Both the position numbers and the translations under genes were made by a program. The notes below the pieces were generated by a model, which had not been told where the DNA came from, searched no databases, and saw only the letters and a list, made by a program, of their open reading frames with translations. This document shows, piece after piece, positions 6,906 to 57,554 of a stretch of DNA of 64,000 nucleotides (position 1 is its first letter; each line of letters opens with the position of its first letter). This DNA is from Scleropages formosus. Taxonomy: Eukaryota. The stretch covers positions 31,928,960 through 31,992,959 of the forward strand of contig NC_041813.1 in the NCBI RefSeq assembly GCF_900964775.1, given 5' to 3'.

Positions 6906-6960
<55 letters not shown>
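6906..6960. repeat. (TG)n microsatellite, about 27 units
   Basis: Perfect dinucleotide run. Confidence 0.9.
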
Positions 6961-6965
<5 letters not shown>

Positions 6966-7164
6966 CTATGCAGGTAAATGCGGAGGCATCAACCAGAGGC
7001 TGCTACTGGGGGGCATCACATCACTTCTCCAAACGACGCTTAGACCGCCTCTGCAGTGCCAGCTCATGTACCGTGTGGACAGAAGGTTGGGTGCAGGTGA
7101 ACAAAGCCAAGGTGAAGCAGCAAAGCCTGGATGTGGTGCCAGTACATAAAGGCTCAGGGAGCTG

Positions 7165-7542
7165 TCAAGGCATCCAGGCTGACATCAGCATGAGGGACAG
7201 GAGTGGTGAGGACACAGTAAGCAAGAGAGCTAGAGAGGGGGATTTGTTCGCTCCACCGGTGGTTCCGGAAGTAGCGGAGGGGGTCACTGACACCGAGGAT
7301 CCAGGAACAGTAGAAGGAGCCGCTGAAGTTGAGGTGGATGTCGAAGGAGGGAGATCTGCCACGTTCTGTGCGATGAAGCTGTAGAAGTGGTATACTCTGT
7401 AGAAGACCTCCACCGAGGATGAGCTGGCCCTGCTGCTGTTGGAGATACCGATGGTGGTGCCGTTGATGTTCTCCATCATTACCACTGCAACCTGGAGCCA
7501 GGAACCGGCCTGCTGGCAAACCAAGGGGCCTCCTGCGAAGCC
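7165..7542 (-). CDS. Paralogue B terminal exon: GFAGGPLVCQQAGSW... (Ala at the catalytic Ser position), then a Ser/Thr-rich stretch and a hydrophobic tail (GPI-signal-like); stop 7165-7167
   Basis: Acceptor cacag|GGC at 7543. This is ORF 7165..7524 extended upstream in frame. The C-terminus is ...SPSLALLLTVSSPLLSLMLMSAWMP*. Confidence 0.5.
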   Translation of the reverse strand, partial: GFAGGPLVCQQAGSWLQVAVVMMENINGTTIGISNSSRASSSSVEVFYRVYHFYSFIAQNVADLPPSTSTSTSAAPSTVPGSSVSVTPSATSGTTGGANKSPSLALLLTVSSPLLSLMLMSAWMP

Positions 7543-7666
7543 CTGTGTTGAGTGGGGAGAGCGAGGAGCAGGTTGAGAAGCTCCACTTGGGCAGCAGGAA
7601 AGACACCGAAACCTGAAACAAACACAGGAGCGAACAGAGTGCCAACCCTGCCGCTGGTGAACCTAC

Positions 7667-7764
7667 CTGCCGGAGGTCCACAGCTGAGGTGCAGATGTTG
7701 TCCGCGGACGAGATGTTTCCGCAGGACACCGCGGTCGTCTGGATCTGCCGAAGAACCTGCCCCG
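7667..7764 (-). CDS. Paralogue B exon, equivalent to paralogue A exon 4 (...AGQVLRQIQTTAVSCGNISSADNICTSAVDLRQ)
   Basis: Acceptor ccgcag|CG and donor CAG|gtaggt. The same frame stays open upstream to about 7858, giving a GWG-like ...HVSGSSWTE... Confidence 0.4.
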
Positions 7765-7927
7765 CTGCGGGGGGTTCCAGGGGAAAGAGGTTTTGTTCAG
7801 TCCAGCTTGAACCCGAAACATGGGTACGTACAGTGTGTACGTTGTAAATGACATGATGAAGTCAATCAATCACTGTGTCTTTAGTAGTGCGACACGTTTC
7901 CATACTGTTAACATGTAATGTCTGACT

Positions 7928-7960
<33 letters not shown>

Positions 7961-8021
7961 TGGGGCACCTCTTCTTGTTGGTTCAGGAAACGGGGGTGGG
8001 GGGGGTCCTGCAGGTGCTCAC

Positions 8022-8190
8022 CTGTCGAAGCAGTTGGCGGTGCTCATGACGACACTCCGCGAGATGAGGGAGCCCCCGCAGACGTGGACCCCGCCTCTCT
8101 GCAGGCTCACCTGCCATGGCCACGCCCCCTCAGTTGCCAGGTCACTGCTGCTGCTGTTGTTGTTCAGGGGGGCGTGGCCACAGACATACG
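8022..8190 (-). CDS. Paralogue B exon: protease-domain N-terminus ...[33 protein letters not shown](R)
   Basis: Acceptor ttcag|CG at 8191 and donor AG|gtgagc at 8021. The exon is 169 nt, the same length and phases as paralogue A exon 2. The catalytic His position is Asn. Confidence 0.55.
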
Positions 8191-8579
8191 CTGAAGGAGT
8201 GACGAAAACAGGAGAAACATTAATCAGCGCCCGAACATGCAACTCCCTGAGGATCCATTACTGTTCTGTAGTTCATCCTACACGCAGCAGTTTCAAAATC
8301 CAAGAATGATGAGAAAATATGCGTAACACTTAACAGTATAAATAGAAGAACATCGTATCTTATTACCCCTGAAAAAGAGAAAATCTCAACAGCCTGTGAG
8401 GCACCAGCGCTACTTACTGTTCCACCCACCAACAACAGAATCAAATGAGAAAATTCAAAGAGGAAAGAAGATGAACGATGAGAGAGAAGGAGAGAAATCA
8501 TACATGAAAAAGGAGCACACGAAGGGGTCATGTGGAAGCAACTTTGAACGTGCGGCACTCACTGGAAGGTGGGGTGGTG

Positions 8580-10000
8580 GTAGACGCTTCGGGCTGAATG
8601 GTAGTCACTGGAGATGGTGTGTTTGTGGTGAGTGAGGTCAAGTGTGGTGTGGATGAGGTGGGGGATGGTGCAGTTGGGATGGAGGGTGGTGTAGTTGAGG
8701 AGGTTGAAATGGGGGATGAGGTGGTGGAGGATGGTGTTGATGAGGTGGTCGAGGTGGAGGGTGGTGTAGTTGAGGAGGTTGAAGTAGGGGATGAGGTGGT
8801 GGAGGATGGTGTTGATGAGGTGGTCGAGGTGGAGGGTGGTGTAGTTGAGGAAGCTGATGCAGTTGGGGTGGGGGGTGGTGCGGATGAGGAGGCTGGGGTG
8901 GGGTGGAAGAGGTTACTGGGGTGGTGGACGGTGCGGTTGAGGGGGATGGAGTGGTGGATAGTGCGGTTGGGGTGGAGGACGGTGTGGATGGGGAGGAAGG
9001 GGTGGAGGACGGTGCAGTAGAGGTGGATGAGGTGGGGGATGGTGTGGTGGAGGATGGTGTTGATGAGGTGGTTGAGGAAGAGGATGGTGCAGTTGAGGTG
9101 GAGGGTGGTGTAGTTGAGGAGGTTGGTGTAGTTGAGGAGGTTGAAGTGGGGGATGGTGCAGTCGGGGTGGGGGGTGGTGCGGATGAGGAGGCTGGGGTGG
9201 GGGGTGGGGTGGAAGAGGTTACTGGGGTGGTGGACGGTGCGGTTGAGGGGGATGGGGTGGAGGACGGTGTGGAAGACGGTGCGGATGGGGTGGAGGACAG
9301 TGTGGAGGACGGTGCGGTTGAGGGGGGTGGGGTGGAGGACGGTGTGGAGGACGGTGCGGATGGGGTGGAGGACGGTGCGGAGGCTGGGGTGGGGCGGAAG
9401 AGGTGGCTGAGGTGGAGGACGGTGCGGTGGAGGATGGTGTGGTTGTGGTGGGTGAGGTGGGGGAAGGTGAGGATGAGGTAGAGGATGTTGCAGTTGAGGT
9501 GGGGGATGGTGTGGATGAGGTGGGGGATGGTGTGGATGAGGTGGCTGAGGTGGGGGAGGGTGAGGATGAGGTGGCTGAGGGTGTGGATGACCTGAAGGAT
9601 GTTGCAGCTGGGGTGGTTGAGGTGGAGGAGGGTGTGGTTGAGGTGGCGGAGGTGGGGGAGGGTGTGGTTGAGGTGGCGGAGGTGGAGGAGGGTGTGGTTG
9701 AGGTGGCTGAGGTGGGGGAGGGTGTGGTTGAGGTGGAGGATGTTGCAATTGGAGTGGTGGAGGTGGGGGATGGTGTGGATGAGGTGGAGGATGTTGCAGT
9801 TGAGGTGGCGGAGGTGGGGGAGGGTGTGGTTGAGGTGGAGGATGTTGCAATTGGAGTGGTGGAGGTGGGGGAGGGTGTGGTTGAGGTGGGGGAGGGTGAG
9901 GATGAGGTGGAGGATGTTGCAGTTGAGGTGGCGGAGGTGGGGGATGATGTGGTTGAGGTGGCTGAGGTGGGGGAGGGTGTGGATGATGTGGTTGAGCTAA
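8580..10000. repeat. Coding minisatellite: imperfect tandem repeats of about 78 bp encoding Ser/Thr/Pro (mucin-like PTS) and Pro/His/Gln-rich peptide on the minus strand
   Basis: Repeated units such as GGTGGTCGAGGTGGAGGGTGGTGTAGTTGAGGAGGTTGAAG. All six frames are open across about 1.5 kb. The ORF track shows PTS repeats in two minus-strand frames. Confidence 0.75.
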
Positions 10001-10178
10001 CTGGTAGTGTGGTTGAGGGGAAGGGTGGTGTGGGTGTGTTGGAGTTGATCCAGTCTCGATACGAGGACACCGCGGTGTACACTCCTGGCTGTTCCTGGGT
10101 GTTGCATCCACCGAACATAATCCCAGTTTGGACCCAGACCGAACCCTGTTTGACCACCAGCGGAGCTCCTTGTAACCC
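9219..10178 (-). CDS. Paralogue A exon 5 (terminal): [45 protein letters not shown], then about 270 aa of mucin-like S/T/P repeat and a PPHPHRPP-type Pro/His tail; stop 9219-9221
   Basis: Acceptor tgtgcag|GGG at 10179. ORF 9219..10196 gives the frame. The Ser-position motif GDSGGP reads GLQGAP (Ser to Gln). The end of the tail is uncertain because the repeat continues in another frame down to about 8528. Confidence 0.6.
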
Positions 10179-10206
10179 CTGCACATATGGAGACACATTT
10201 TCATCA

Positions 10207-10440
10207 TGAGTAGGAAGAGTCAGACTGGAATTGAGCTCATGCGATCAATTTGGGTTACTCTCATTTTATACTGCTCCCTTTGGACTAAGGTTCCAGGTTC
10301 AAATCCAACATCTGAGTGTACAACTCTCGAAGAAGGTATTTATCCTAAATTACAGAGCTGTGTAAATGGGTGAAGAATTTTAAGTAGAAAAACATGATGC
10401 TTTGGAGAAAAGGTTCAGATAAATGAATAAATGTAAAGGT
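10207..10440 (+). mobile_element. SINE family 2 (tail ...GCTTTGGAGAAAAGGTTCAGATAAATGAATAAATGTAAAG)
   Basis: The tail consensus is shared with copies at 26770-26975, 34452-34615 and 47295-47425. It lies in an intron of paralogue A. Confidence 0.6.
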
Positions 10441-10442
10441 AC

Positions 10443-10579
10443 CCTGCATGAGGTGTTGTTCCCTGGCAGCTGAGTGGTACAGAACTTGTTGTTCATGTTG
10501 AGATTAAAATTTTTATAGATGGAGAGACACACTTCGTTTCCCACCGCAGACATCTGAAACTGCAGCAGGTCGACGACGT
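10443..10579 (-). CDS. Paralogue A exon 4 (DVVDLLQFQMSAVGNEVCLSIYKNFNLNMNNKFCTTQLPGNNTSCR)
   Basis: Acceptor ttcttcag|AC and donor AGG|gtacc. Phase 1 in and phase 0 out, consistent with exons 3 and 5. Low coordinates are +/-1 because no ORF-track anchor exists for this short exon. Confidence 0.55.
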
Positions 10580-10755
10580 CTGAAGAAGAGAGCAGCGAGG
10601 ATTAACACGCTAAGATACGAGTGAGACGGAGATATAAAACGGTTCCACGTGATCCCATGTTGTCCGTATCCAGAGTCGAACCTCTATCCTTCCGTCATGA
10701 TCCACGTTCCGTTCCCCCCTCGGCACCCGCACGTCTCTTTGCGCTAATTTCTTAC

Positions 10756-11024
10756 CTTGGGAATCGATGGCCCCCCACCCGGTGACCCACATGTCGGTGC
10801 TGTTGTAGAAGGTGCTGCCGTTGGGCGCCAGACAGACGGGCTGGATGTAGTCGTTGAAGTTGACCGGGGAGGAGAGCTGGACCAGAGCTATAATGTTCTC
10901 ATATGAATTGGTACGGAAATCCGGATGAAGGATGATCCTACTGAGGGTTCTGGACACCTCGTTTGGGTTGTTACCGCTCTGATTCTGTCGACCCAGATAA
11001 AAAAGCCAGTCGCCGGGGTTCGAG
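10756..11024 (-). CDS. Paralogue A exon 3 ([16 protein letters not shown]...[61 protein letters not shown])
   Basis: ORF 10610..10957 extended in frame to acceptor ctcctgcag|C. Donor CAAG|gtaaga at 10755. The Asp-position motif (prostasin HDIALLQLS) reads [10 protein letters not shown], so Asp is Ile. Confidence 0.7.
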
Positions 11025-11139
11025 CTGCAGGAGACGGAAGGAGAGAGTGTCAGCGGGAGAAAACCAGCGTGTGTCTATGTTCCTGAGATCCGGCACTCTG
11101 GGAACACGTGTCACGCCGCACTCAAAGTTCATACAGTAC

Positions 11140-11308
11140 CTGCCAAATACGAAGCAGTAGGCAGAAGTCAGGACCCACTGGTTGTTGATGAGGGACCCTT
11201 GACACGCGAAGTATCCCGTATCTGACATACTGACCACCCAGGGCCAGCTCCCCGGGGCGGCAACCGGCCCCGAGACCTTGCCAGTGTTCAGGGGGGCTTG
11301 ACCGCATG
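11140..11308 (-). CDS. Paralogue A exon 2 ([55 protein letters not shown])
   Basis: Anchored to ORF 10971..11447. Acceptor ctctcag|CA and donor GGCAG|gtactg. The His-position motif TAAHC reads TSAYC (His to Tyr). Confidence 0.7.
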
Positions 11309-11634
11309 CTGAGAGGGACGAGATGTGAGCAGGTGAACATGTGACTGACTGAAGAAGTGCAGAAGAAAAAGAAGAGAGCCGTGAACACGCTGACGCGCAC
11401 GCACACACACGTTGGAGAAAATGCCGCTGCGCATAACCAAACTCCACTGCATAATTTCTAACTTTGCAGTTGGCTCTGATTTTTAATGCACTTTACAACA
11501 ACGAGAAATATCATCCAGATGTAATAAAGGCGACACAGCTGGACACGTGCTCAGGATGACCTTTTCAGAATAATAAGTGTCACGCAAGTGTCGCCGATCC
11601 ATTCCAAGTTATTAATGGAGAAAGTAAGACTCAC

Positions 11635-11689
11635 CCTCAGCCAGAGCAGCCAGCAGAACCAGGGAGCAAAGACACTTGAGCAGAGCCAT
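11635..11689 (-). CDS. Paralogue A exon 1: start codon and signal peptide MALLKCLCSLVLLAALAE(G)
   Basis: ATG at 11689 followed by a hydrophobic leader. Donor GAGG|gtgagt at 11634. The phase-1 carry matches exon 2. Confidence 0.65.
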
Positions 11690-11959
11690 GGTGCGAGAGC
11701 TCCTGCCAGTGCGCGAGAGGTTCGTGCTACTTATACCTGGAGGCGCTTTCGGTTTCAGAAAACACCCATCACCCATTTATTACGAGGTTCGACACTAATA
11801 ATGACAGCAAAGAATGTCCTTGTTGATGAGCTGCCACTCAAGTGACAAATCAGTTGTTGATCCACACCTTTTCTCCAAAGTAACTTCCAGTGTTAAACTA
11901 CATACAGTTTTTGCCCATTCAAACAAAAAGGCATCACTCACTCACTCACTCACTCACTC

Positions 11960-12075
11960 ACTCACTGGTTTAGGGTAAGTACCTTCCTCAAGGTGGGATT
12001 CAAACCCATGACCTTCTTGTGCCAGGGAAGCAGTTCCAAGCACTGCGCTACCAGAGCTCTCTACAGTTGTACCTG
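11960..12075 (-). mobile_element. SINE head fragment (tRNA-like GCTCTGGTAGCGCAGTGCTTGG...GGTCATGGGTTTGAATCCC), reverse orientation
   Basis: A-box and B-box motifs are present. It is flanked by a (CACT)n run at 11936-11967. Confidence 0.5.
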
Positions 12076-20404: not shown

Positions 20405-20517
20405 CTAGAGGCAGGAGAGAGCAGGACACAAGTTTGCACGCATTGCCTGCTGAAATTGCACACAAGTAGCATGACAAGTGTGATGTCATGTTAGGAGGAG
20501 GCCTTTTCATTACTCAC

Positions 20518-20908
20518 CACTACTGGACACTGTCTCCCTGACAAAGGGTCGGTTCACTATGAGTTTTGACTTGGCAGCAAAGTTGAGCGCCGTGAATGTG
20601 TCAAAGTAGTATTTGTACTCAGGTGCAATGTTCGTGATCATGACAGAGTGGGCGGAGCCCCCCAGGGAGTCCTGCAGCAGGCGAGTGAGCTTGCTGTCCC
20701 GGTAGGGGACACGGCAACCCCCGCCAGCATTCAGTGCGTCCACCACCTTGCTCAGTGTGAAGAGCGACAGGTTGATGGCTCCACTCTCTTTCAAACGCAG
20801 GCCCTGGTTGCCAGTACGCCGGTTGTCCTCTGAGCCAGCTAGGTCCACCAGGTACAGCTTGCCTGTCTGCTGTCGATGAGGAGGACTTTGCTGGGACCTC
20901 ACCACCTG
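20518..20908 (-). CDS. kif22: kif22 exon 5 (motor-domain C-terminus: [45 protein letters not shown]...[22 protein letters not shown])
   Basis: ORF 20510..20905. Contains the kinesin switch-II motif [10 protein letters not shown]. Acceptor ccacag|GTG and donor AGTG|gtgagt. Confidence 0.8.
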
Positions 20909-21812
20909 TGGGGAAGGGGGTTACAGGGTCCATTGAATATGGTAGTGCTGCAATACTTACTTTTATAGACACCCCTCGACTTGTGCAAATAGACTGTTCT
21001 TCAACCCCTTACATAAGTCAAAAGTTACATGTGTCAGATTCCCCCCTCCTCCGCAACCATTCAACACAGGCTAAGCTACCCTAAGCATTTGTTGCAAACA
21101 CGGTATAAAAAAAATTACACAACAACTCTAGTAAATGTAAGACACATTAAGTATGGTAAGACATATCCTTCACCATTGTATTCGCAGTCAATACGGCTAT
21201 ACCAAGTTCCTATGCTAGAGAGCATAATCTGCCCACCTTCATACTTCCTTATTATTTTAAATTTCATCTCCAAATCGATTACTGTACACCTGCAAGATGG
21301 TTCTCGTTTTCCTTCAAGGGCACGTTTACCACCAGGCATTGTAAATATTGAAATAGGTTTTTAAAAAAAAAGTGCAAAAAAGCACAAGACTAACAAGAGG
21401 AGATGTGTTCACAGTTGAAATCACACAGGAACTGGCAAGATGCAGCTTCCTGCCTTGTCTGGCTACACCGACGTGCGCTTAACGTATTTCAGATGTCTTG
21501 GATAAAATAAAAGCGATATCCAAAAATGTGCGCCAGGAATTTTTTACGTAAATTCGGATTTAATAAATACATGGGAACGTAATCGTAAATACATGGGAAC
21601 ACGTCAGCAGGAGGAGAGGTTGGACGGTCTAAGCTATCACCACGGCCTGGATCAGGTGCTGCGTACAGTTTGTTGTGAGATAAGGGCAGATTTTGCAGGT
21701 GTATCTGCAAGACTGGGTTGCGGGTTCCGTATGTTGAGGACGACAGACTTGCGTCAATCATTACACCAAGCTTTTAATCAATGAAGTAGATGAAATGAAG
21801 GTTTGATAGACT

Positions 21813-57018: not shown

Positions 57019-57082
57019 CTCGCACTTGAAGGGCCTCTCGGTCGAGTGCACCTGCCTCACGTGGCTGTTGAGGTGGTCCGGC
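57019..57082 (-). CDS. maz: maz exon 5 ((R)PDHLNSHVRQVHSTERPFKCE)
   Basis: Acceptor gccgcag|G and donor GAG|gtacgg. Identical to human PDHLNSHVRQVHSTERPFKCE. Confidence 0.75.
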
Positions 57083-57165
57083 CTGCGGCACAACACAAAA
57101 GCGCGTTAGAAAGCAACGGTGGAAACGCGGTCCCCTCCCCACGTGCACACTGCGCTCCACCGTAC

Positions 57166-57407
57166 CGTGAAAAGCCCTTGGCGCAGTGGGGGCACACGTA
57201 GGGCTTCTCCACGCCGCCCTGGTGCGAGCGCACGTGGTAGCTCATGCGGTCCTTGCGCTTGAAGCGCTGCTGGCAGATGGGGCACGAGTAGGGCTTCTCA
57301 TCAGAGTGGGAGAGCCGGTGCCGGTTCAGGTGGTACACGTCTCGGAAGGCCTTGCCACAGGCCTCGCACGCGTGGTTCTTGCGCACTGGGTTCGGGTTCG
57401 GCAGGCG
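57166..57407 (-). CDS. maz: maz exon 4 (RLPNPNPVRKNHACEACGKAFRDVYHLNRHRLSHSDEKPYSCPICQQRFKRKDRMSYHVRSHQGGVEKPYVCPHCAKGFS(R))
   Basis: ORF 57057..57425. Acceptor tctcag|CGC and donor TCACG|gtacgg. Near-identical to human NHACEMCGKAFRDVYHLNRHKLSHSDEKPYQCPVCQQRFKRKDRMSYHVRSH. Confidence 0.85.
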
Positions 57408-57554
57408 CTGAGAGACACAAAGCACAGTGACTGATGCTACAGTAAGAGAGGTTGGCTGAGCATCGGCACAGCACTATCGCTACGGTAACTGAGCTCCGGA
57501 GGAAGACCGCGTGCGTGACGCTCACCAGGACTGTGGTCAAGGTGCTAGACAAAC

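Follow-up and report, generated by a model that had tools for sequence, protein, structure and literature searches.

A probable partly decayed duplicate of a teleost two-domain protease-like gene, with a mucin-like repeat array, in Scleropages formosus

Vertebrate S1 pseudoproteases such as haptoglobin, HGF/MSP, azurocidin and protein Z carry the chymotrypsin fold with a substituted catalytic triad and act by binding, not by catalysis. They are old, conserved genes under clear purifying selection. The subject of this analysis is a trypsin-like locus of the arowana Scleropages formosus, contained in a 64,000-nucleotide stretch of contig NC_041813.1 (assembly GCF_900964775.1, positions 31,928,960 to 31,992,959; hereafter the window). 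Two units, A and the downstream B, lie there on the minus strand, as do all their features, and all coordinates are positions in the window. A sequence-only reading had described them as a tandem pair of paralogous pseudoprotease genes from a family it could not name. Comparison with public proteins leads to a different account: A and B correspond to domains 1 and 2 of one gene, probably a single, partly decayed, Scleropages-specific duplicate of a teleost two-domain prostasin/tryptase-like gene, whose 5′ half may encode a secreted pseudoprotease with a mucin-like tail. The architecture, homology, substitutions, frame structure, exon loss and rate asymmetry from which this account starts are directly observed.

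Two further described systems are close to this locus. Human polyserase-2 (PRSS36) is built of three tandem S1 domains, only the first of which is active, and polyserase-3 (PRSS53) of two; both are unprocessed secreted chains encoded beside prostasin at 16p11.2, and some polyserase domains lack a consensus activation motif (PMC1435904). The second system is 'mucinization', in which non-mucin mammalian genes gain exonic tandem repeats rich in proline, threonine and serine (PTS repeats; Pajic et al. 2022, PMC9417175).

The closest database proteins are 100%-identical partial S. formosus models, namely XP_029109764 ('TMPRSS6-like', 234 aa) and two older UniParc models. The next matches are teleost proteins, 45–58% identical, named serine protease 27/33-like, tryptase-like or zgc:100868. 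The family can thus be named after all, as zgc:100868, serine protease 27/33-like or TMPRSS9-like; it is of polyserase type, and dead members and Ser/Thr/Pro (S/T/P) stalks recur in it. A literature search on 'zgc 100868' gave no match. Relatives with two S1 domains in a single chain occur in Oryzias (460 aa), Dallia (457 aa), Tetraodon (452 aa), Sphaeramia and Paralichthys. These teleost proteins consist of an active domain 1, a short S/T/P linker and a domain 2 that lacks the activation site R-IVGG. Domain 2 of the two-domain homologues has (S/D)ANCF; its residue 57 is N, D, G or Q, and its residue 102 is N in most of them. A paralogue with the same organisation, XP_029110177 (P0122; 608 aa), lies on the same arowana chromosome as A and B. 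Its chain runs from a signal peptide identical to that of A through an active domain 1, the linker TITGPPPSP, a domain 2 reading AADCF, SNIALL and GFAGGP, and an S/T stalk to a hydrophobic tail.

The arowana locus follows this order throughout. Signal peptide, domain 1, S/T/P linker, domain 2 and hydrophobic C-terminus succeed one another on one strand from 11689 to 7165, with the exon phases of the paralogue. As the order and homology of A and B are those of the two-domain chains, the two units are read as the two domains of one ancestral gene. Since domain 2 is catalytically dead across teleosts, the dead triad of B would be inherited and not an event at this locus. The RefSeq model XP_029109764, which joins A exons 1–3 to sequence just 3′ of the B stop, also counts for a one-gene origin. 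The uninterrupted frame of the two-domain family is missing here: two 7-nt frame switches and a stop at 9219 interrupt the chain, and exon 3 of domain 2 is deleted. Collectively, these comparisons point to a derivative of the two-domain zgc:100868/'TMPRSS9-like' family, not to an intact member of it.

Joining and translating the five exons of unit A (Table 1) reproduces exactly the 529 aa that had been proposed, with AG/GT at each junction. Exon 1 encodes the same amino acids as exon 1 of the active paralogue (96% identity at the DNA level), and the hydrophobic core of the signal peptide has a Kyte–Doolittle mean of 2.7. Residues 30–254 match the Pfam Trypsin profile (PF00089) from position 2 to position 220 of 220 (E=1.8e-42) with 146 bits against a gathering cutoff of 20.6, which places A in the S1/chymotrypsin-fold family. 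Alignments to the solved structures of plasma kallikrein, factor XI, TMPRSS2 and prostasin have E values of around 1e-36 to 1e-41. All 10 cysteines of the active paralogue domain 1 are kept, the disulfide cysteines of the prostasin/tryptase subgroup included. Exon 3 is 85% identical in DNA to its counterpart in the paralogue, and exon 4 is 18 nt shorter than its own.

The residues required for catalysis are gone from this fold. Residue-level alignment to solved proteases gives Tyr, Ile and Gln in place of His57, Asp102 and Ser195, as the sequence-only reading had it; no His, Asp or Ser is retained at these positions. In the alignment to plasma kallikrein, A has LTSAYCF at His57, the Asp102 segment of kallikrein is NHDIALIKL, and CRGLQGAPL of A stands opposite CKGDSGGPL. 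The same alignment shows Asp194 replaced by Leu, Asp189 by Thr and the activation site R-IVGG by K-VSGP. Without the triad, the zymogen cleavage site, the Asp194 that forms the activation salt bridge and Asp189, neither activation nor catalysis is to be expected of A. Domain 1 of the family is ordinarily active, and HDS is found at the aligned positions in 105 of 120 homologues where A has YIQ. Loss of the triad is not confined to the arowana. Among 118 non-arowana homologues, 13 have one or two substitutions (QDG in Micropterus and Monopterus; TDS, HDA, HDG, FDS, NDS and YD- elsewhere); all three positions are substituted in none of them, and A has no orthologue in this set. Catalytically dead members therefore seem to arise repeatedly in the expanded teleost prostasin/tryptase-like family.

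Downstream of the protease domain, A runs into a coding-type minisatellite of 1478 nt (10040 to 8563). Its periods range from 9 to 75 nt (21, 30, 51 and 75 among them) and are nearly all multiples of three, and some of its units are 93–97% identical. In the frame of A the array yields 215 aa (residues 258–472) with 37% S, 34% T and 17% P, so that the long mucin-like tract reported earlier stands, at 88% S+T+P; long tandem PTS repeats of this kind are typical of mucin-like proteins. The next 57 aa (residues 473–529) are 56% P and 21% H. These PPHPHRPP repeats had been taken for a module of their own. They are the same S/T/P repeat DNA, translated in a frame that a 7-nt slippage deletion has displaced by one base, and hence no separate module.

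The frame structure of the array makes this plain. The S+T content is 0.5–0.8 per 30-codon window throughout, in three successive frames: the S/T/P frame is that of A to ~9400, is shifted by one base to ~8905, and is shifted a second time to 8563. Both switches occur at one motif, CTCTTCC[A/G]CCCCACCCCAGCC (9402 and 8911). A third copy at 9217 has seven additional bases (CCCCACCCCCCACCCC) and keeps the frame, and the TAA stop of A falls in the CCAGTAACC of the motif. The C-terminus of P0121, an independent protein model from an older assembly, shows the 8911 switch, which means that at least this lesion is not private to the present assembly. The third S/T/P frame runs up to a phase-1 GTGAGT donor (8562); phase 1 is both what B exon 2 requires and the phase of the linker donor in the paralogue. 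This fit identifies the array, as far as sequence can tell, as the expanded inter-domain linker of a two-domain gene, and S/T/P stretches of 20–60 aa at the inter-domain position are common in the family.

The same fit could be taken further. If the frame breaks were due to a cryptic intron or to assembly errors, A, the array and B might form one intact, glycosylphosphatidylinositol (GPI)-anchored double pseudoprotease with a mucin linker of ~300–500 aa, in which B would use an alternative acceptor. S/T/P potential does span all three array segments up to the phase-1 donor, and 46 formal single-intron solutions restore the array frame (for example donor 9591, CAG/GTCATC, to acceptor 8915), which weighs against a truncated A. 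That number of solutions is, however, expected by chance in a stop-poor array and the candidate donors are weak, and they were not accepted as evidence for such an intron. The recurrence of the 8911 switch in an independent model also speaks against errors of assembly. Together with the state of B, described next, this renders an intact chain improbable.

Unit B stays nearly identical to domain 2 of the paralogue. Exon 2 agrees with it at 50/55 aa, exon 4 at 32/33 aa and the beginning of exon 5 at 30/30 aa. The 169-nt exon 2 and the Asn and Ala at the triad were correctly seen by the sequence-only reading: STANCF has Asn57, GFAGGP has Phe for Asp194 and Ala195, residue 102 is absent with its exon, and there is no activation site. 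The tail of B also resembles a GPI signal, as had been noted earlier, in that the last 24 residues, which follow GGANKS, are hydrophobic (Kyte–Doolittle mean 1.4). The frame closes with ...TSGTTGGANKS and then PSLALLLTVSSPLLSLMLMSAWMP; the paralogue has a similar tail, which at this locus is out of reach of the A open reading frame (ORF) as assembled. A homology search with B found, among the cluster representatives returned, no public protein that has its specific C-terminus.

What B lacks is the 269-nt exon that would carry Asp102. The corresponding window intron is just 257 nt long and contains (CA)n, and an older scaffold of the paralogue (L001) keeps the exon, 68% identical to Oryzias domain 2. 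Because the whole exon is missing, B matches the Trypsin profile in two fragments only (profile positions 7–46 and a C-terminal piece; 51.6 bits), and it is without the cysteines that this exon would encode. Since exon 3 is absent, the canonical join is out of frame, exon 2 ending in phase 2 and the conserved acceptor of exon 4 being in phase 1. Exon 4 could follow exon 2 in frame only with the missing exon or through an acceptor whose counterpart in the paralogue is intronic. This acceptor, read directly from the sequence near 7809, and the near identity of B to domain 2 of the paralogue are what an intact double pseudoprotease could further invoke; its place in intron sequence and the loss of exon 3 argue to the contrary. 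By homology, B is without ~90 residues of the fold, and a chymotrypsin double barrel cannot be expected to form. The canonical exon 2 to exon 4 reading of B (7157–8190, minus strand), although out of frame, stays open for ~170 codons and ends 8 nt past the in-frame stop; in this interval, then, coding cannot be argued from an open frame.

These properties of B also bear on the notion of two independent tandem genes, A being secreted with a mucin and Pro/His tail and B a GPI-anchored pseudoprotease. Both units do have a 169-nt exon 2 and trypsin homology. B is, however, the counterpart of domain 2 of single-chain homologues and not of a stand-alone gene; canonical splicing leaves it out of frame, the Asp102 exon being absent, and the Pro/His module is a frame artefact. 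Nor does B have an in-phase start or signal exon of its own. The ATGs at 8531 and 8501 with a good GTAAGT donor at 8417 would give phase 0, whereas exon 2 requires phase 1. ATG-to-GT combinations in the right phase do occur upstream of B, but their donors score -0.8 or lower and homology support for such first exons is absent. Two separate genes are thus highly improbable. Splicing from within A exon 5 straight to B exon 2, which would join the units, was discarded as well, there being no phase-1 donor better than -1.6.

The remaining question is whether A has been maintained as a protein. Against domain 1 of the active paralogue, the Nei–Gojobori method gives 0.275 nonsynonymous (dN) and 0.489 synonymous (dS) substitutions per site, a dN/dS of 0.56. 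Amino-acid replacements were polarised with 12 outgroup proteins, and branch ratios were derived assuming equal dS on the two branches. A comparison of dN/dS with paralogues had been proposed earlier as a measure of purifying selection. Its outcome is divided: the A branch is near neutral, yet the frame and most family-invariant residues are kept.

A number of observations weigh against a maintained protein and are compatible with the whole locus, A included, being a non-functional unprocessed pseudogene, possibly still transcribed, in which the open frame of A is a recent survivor. The A branch has about 40–52 unique replacements compared with 5–14 on the paralogue branch, and dN/dS is roughly 0.7–0.9, close to neutral, compared with about 0.2. 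Put differently, A evolves ~5 times faster than the active paralogue (40:8 amino-acid changes). Exons 2, 4 and 5 of A are 65–74% identical in DNA to those of the paralogue, about equal to the introns (67–75%). Catalytic, activation and S1-pocket residues have been lost together. Two donors of A are weak: GTACTG of exon 2 (11134–11139) scores about 0 and GTACCT of exon 4 (10437–10442) about -1, where the paralogue has GTAAGT and GTAGAG and the other donors at the locus score +6 to +7. Frameshifts break up the array, and an exon of domain 2 is gone. Further, the RefSeq model is a truncated product of 234 aa that skips A exons 4 and 5, and no transcript-derived protein or ORF for A was found in the protein collection searched. 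Finally, an open frame would not be surprising if decay began recently, the probability that 262 codons remain free of stops on a neutral branch being 0.23 at 0.05 substitutions per site and 0.06 at 0.10.

Neutrality over the whole branch, at 0.245 substitutions per site, fits less well. The probability of the intact 262-codon frame then falls to 0.004, and that of retaining all 16 splice dinucleotide bases of A, which are intact, to about 0.02. The differences in exon length from the paralogue are all multiples of three (+6, 0, -18 and -9 nt), reflecting at least 3 and probably 6–7 indels, every one of them in frame. All cysteines and 74% of the family-invariant residues persist. The 21 of 81 invariant residues (26%) that have been replaced compare with about 40% expected under neutrality at d=0.245 (p=0.005); it should, however, be noted that this test is not significant if the true neutral branch is ~0.15, a further point for the pseudogene. 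Among the replaced invariants, activation, catalytic and S1 positions stand out (I16K, G18S, H57Y, D102I, Q192R, D194L, S195Q and G197A). Such a pattern is the one that release from catalytic constraint gives while constraint on the fold is retained, and in our reading A was maintained as a protein through most of its history.

Lesions of the kind that define pseudogenes are present in the 3′ half, which is frameshifted twice, stops earlier than its parent and has lost exon 3 of domain 2; A exons 1–5 are open with GT/AG intact. The locus is, at most, partly pseudogenised. A pseudogene along its whole length is rather unlikely. A bolder view, that the 5′ half is a live gene for a secreted, 'mucinized' S1 pseudoprotease, is less likely than not. 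A new soluble mucin-like glycoprotein would then have arisen in the arowana from three changes together: the triad and activation site disappeared, the linker grew explosively into a PTS array, and the chain was cut off from the GPI-anchored domain 2.

Divergence between the locus and its paralogue is patchy. The dS of A against the paralogue is 0.14 in exon 1, 0.27 in exon 3 and 0.55–1.1 in exons 2, 4 and 5, and B exons 4–5 are nearly identical to those of the paralogue. Over 411 nt, L001 (5479–5889) is identical to the window (7872–7462, the B exon 4–5 region); the tract is flanked by runs of N. The idea that L001 represents the locus itself was rejected, the scaffold being an older, gapped short-read assembly of the paralogue that is 65–88% identical to the window elsewhere. 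Either the scaffold is collapsed or chimeric here, or these 411 nt passed very recently from one paralogue to the other by gene conversion. The mosaic as a whole appears most simply explained by gene conversion acting in patches on neighbouring paralogues.

With one partly decayed two-domain gene as the probable account, the changes that mark this copy can be summarised as follows. The ancestor would have had a signal peptide, an active S1 domain, a short S/T/P linker, an ancestrally inactive second S1 domain, an S/T stalk and a hydrophobic GPI-like tail. Domain 1 (A) has lost His57, Asp102, Ser195, Asp194, Asp189 and R-IVGG, keeping its open frame, splice dinucleotides, in-frame indels and cysteines. 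The inter-domain linker of roughly 10 aa has grown into a ~1.5-kb coding minisatellite of PTS repeats. Two identical 7-nt slippage deletions at one motif shift the frame of the array twice; translation from the ATG therefore passes through 215 aa of PTS and 57 P/H-rich aa before the stop at 9219. Domain 2 (B) is severed from the A ORF, has no in-phase start exon and is deprived of its 269-nt middle exon, which would make it a relic. What survives, we infer, may be secreted: a chymotrypsin-fold module without catalytic activity, carried on a mucin-type tail with heavy O-glycosylation. Any function would be one of binding and not of cleavage, whether as a decoy or as an adhesive or lubricating surface glycoprotein. 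On this evidence the locus would represent neither a new protein family nor a new gene pair, and is best seen as gene-family turnover. The coordinates of its features are collected in Table 1.

Table 1. Features of the two-domain protease-like locus of S. formosus (window positions)
Feature	Position	Strand	Basis
A exon 1: ATG and signal peptide MALLKCLCSLVLLAALAE, ends in phase 1	11635..11689	-	Splice model; paralogue exon 1
A exon 2, 169 nt: activation site degenerate (K-VSGP for R-IVGG); His57 to Tyr (TSAYCF)	11140..11308	-	
A exon 3, 269 nt: Asp102 to Ile position (ENIIALVQL)	10756..11024	-	
A exon 4, 137 nt: strongly diverged; S1-pocket Asp189 to Thr	10443..10579	-	
A exon 5 (exon 10178–9219), protease part: GLQGAP (Asp194 to Leu, Ser195 to Gln), up to the end of the chymotrypsin fold	10038..10178	-	
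Repeat array segment 1: S/T/P mucin-like PTS in the A frame (residues 258–472), periods 21/30/51 nt	9393..10037	-	
Frame-switch motif 1, CTCTTCCGCCCCACCCCAG: lacks 7 nt of the middle copy; A frame P/H-rich beyond	9384..9402	-	
A ORF C-terminus, 57 aa P/H-rich, and TAA stop (9221–9219)	9219..9392	-	
Repeat array segment 2: S/T/P frame one base off that of A; holds the frame-keeping middle motif copy (9217)	8912..9383	-	
Frame-switch motif 2, CTCTTCCACCCCACCCCAG: same 7 nt missing	8893..8911	-	
Repeat array segment 3: S/T/P in the third frame, up to the phase-1 GTGAGT donor (8562–8557)	8563..8892	-	
B exon 2, 169 nt, opening exon of domain 2: activation site absent; Asn for His57 in STANCF	8022..8190	-	
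Shortened intron with (CA)n: site of the missing 269-nt domain-2 Asp102 exon	7873..8021	-	
B exon 4, 98 nt, phase-1 acceptor	7667..7764	-	
B exon 5: GFAGGP (Ser195 to Ala), S/T-rich stalk, hydrophobic GPI-signal-like tail, stop 7167–7165	7165..7542	-	

The public models of the locus (234 aa in RefSeq, 'TMPRSS6-like'; 258 and 368 aa in the older ones) are unreliable. Those of A start at an upstream in-frame ATG (MGDGCFLKPK..., 11747–11776, minus strand) that lies 5′ of a TATA-like GTATAAG (11730–11736). This element is about 45 nt upstream of the ATG at 11689, which is the start homologous to that of the paralogue, and the 28-aa N-terminal extension of XP_029109764 is probably an annotation artefact. 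After A exon 3, XP_029109764 (P0002) continues with the sequence at 7024–7146 (minus strand). No part of the window encodes the 'VP' at its junction or the final 19 aa of P0001, an older model; a different assembly, a different haplotype or editing of the models could be the reason. Annotation pipelines may skip A exons 4 and 5 because the donors of exons 2 and 4 are weak.

No trypsin-like exons other than those of A and B were found in the 64-kb window, and Rfam and tRNA scans of the 5–14 kb interval gave no match. Microsatellites accompany the gene: (GT)n at 6908–6962 downstream of it, (CA)n at 7932–7960 in the shortened intron of B, exactly at the site of the exon-3 deletion, and (CACT)n at 11935–11965 upstream of the promoter, beside a fragment resembling a short interspersed nuclear element, where ARAGORN and Rfam had no match. 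Elsewhere in the window there are a kinesin motor-domain exon (20513–20920, minus strand; Pfam E=5e-37) and an exon with multiple C2H2 zinc fingers (57060–57473, minus strand). These may belong to KIF22- and MAZ-type genes, which would fit a syntenic block like human 16p11.2. The sequence-only reading had drawn the same parallel, and the two exons are compatible with it, human prostasin, polyserase-2 and polyserase-3 all being located at 16p11.2.

The main outcome is a correction of annotation: where two novel genes had been seen, there is one derivative of a known two-domain protease-like gene, in which the dead triad of B and the S/T/P stalk are ancestral family traits. Beyond this, the locus records steps in the fate of a duplicate gene, namely catalytic death with the fold kept, minisatellite-driven gain of mucin-like character, slippage frameshifts and exon loss. 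Should the 5′ half be expressed, it would offer a clean non-mammalian case of a protease-family, non-mucin gene gaining mucin character, as well as a further S1 pseudoenzyme for study.

Of the described systems, the teleost two-domain proteins are the closest. XP_029110177, Oryzias A0A3P9L3B4, Tetraodon H3D158 and Dallia DPEC_G00110870 share the order of domain 1, linker, domain 2 and hydrophobic tail, with a domain 2 that has no His57 and no activation site. With XP_029110177 in particular (zgc:100868 in Ensembl/UniProt; 'transmembrane protease serine 9-like'), A and B have in common the signal peptide, exon phases, 169- and 269-nt exon sizes and GFAGGP. The arowana locus departs from these relatives in that its domain 1 is devoid of triad and activation site, the middle exon of domain 2 is deleted, and the linker comprises about 490 repeat codons in place of about 10–45 aa, the repeat being frameshifted twice.

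The resemblance to polyserase-2 and polyserase-3 lies in the tandem S1 architecture, and GLSGA in domain 2 of polyserase-3 can be set beside GLQGA of A; the comparison is one of architecture. In the polyserases one or more domains remain active and a mucin-type repeat linker is absent; the arowana locus has a dead first domain and, as assembled, an interrupted chain. Compared with haptoglobin, HGF/MSP, azurocidin and protein Z, A is young and evolves fast, and outside the arowana no orthologue of this duplicate is known. As in mucinization, a short S/T/P stretch of a non-mucin secreted protein would have been amplified into an exonic repeat with dynamic copy number. That process, however, has been described in mammals, for proline-rich and SCPP-locus genes, whereas the present example is a fish S1 protease homologue with a frameshifted array.

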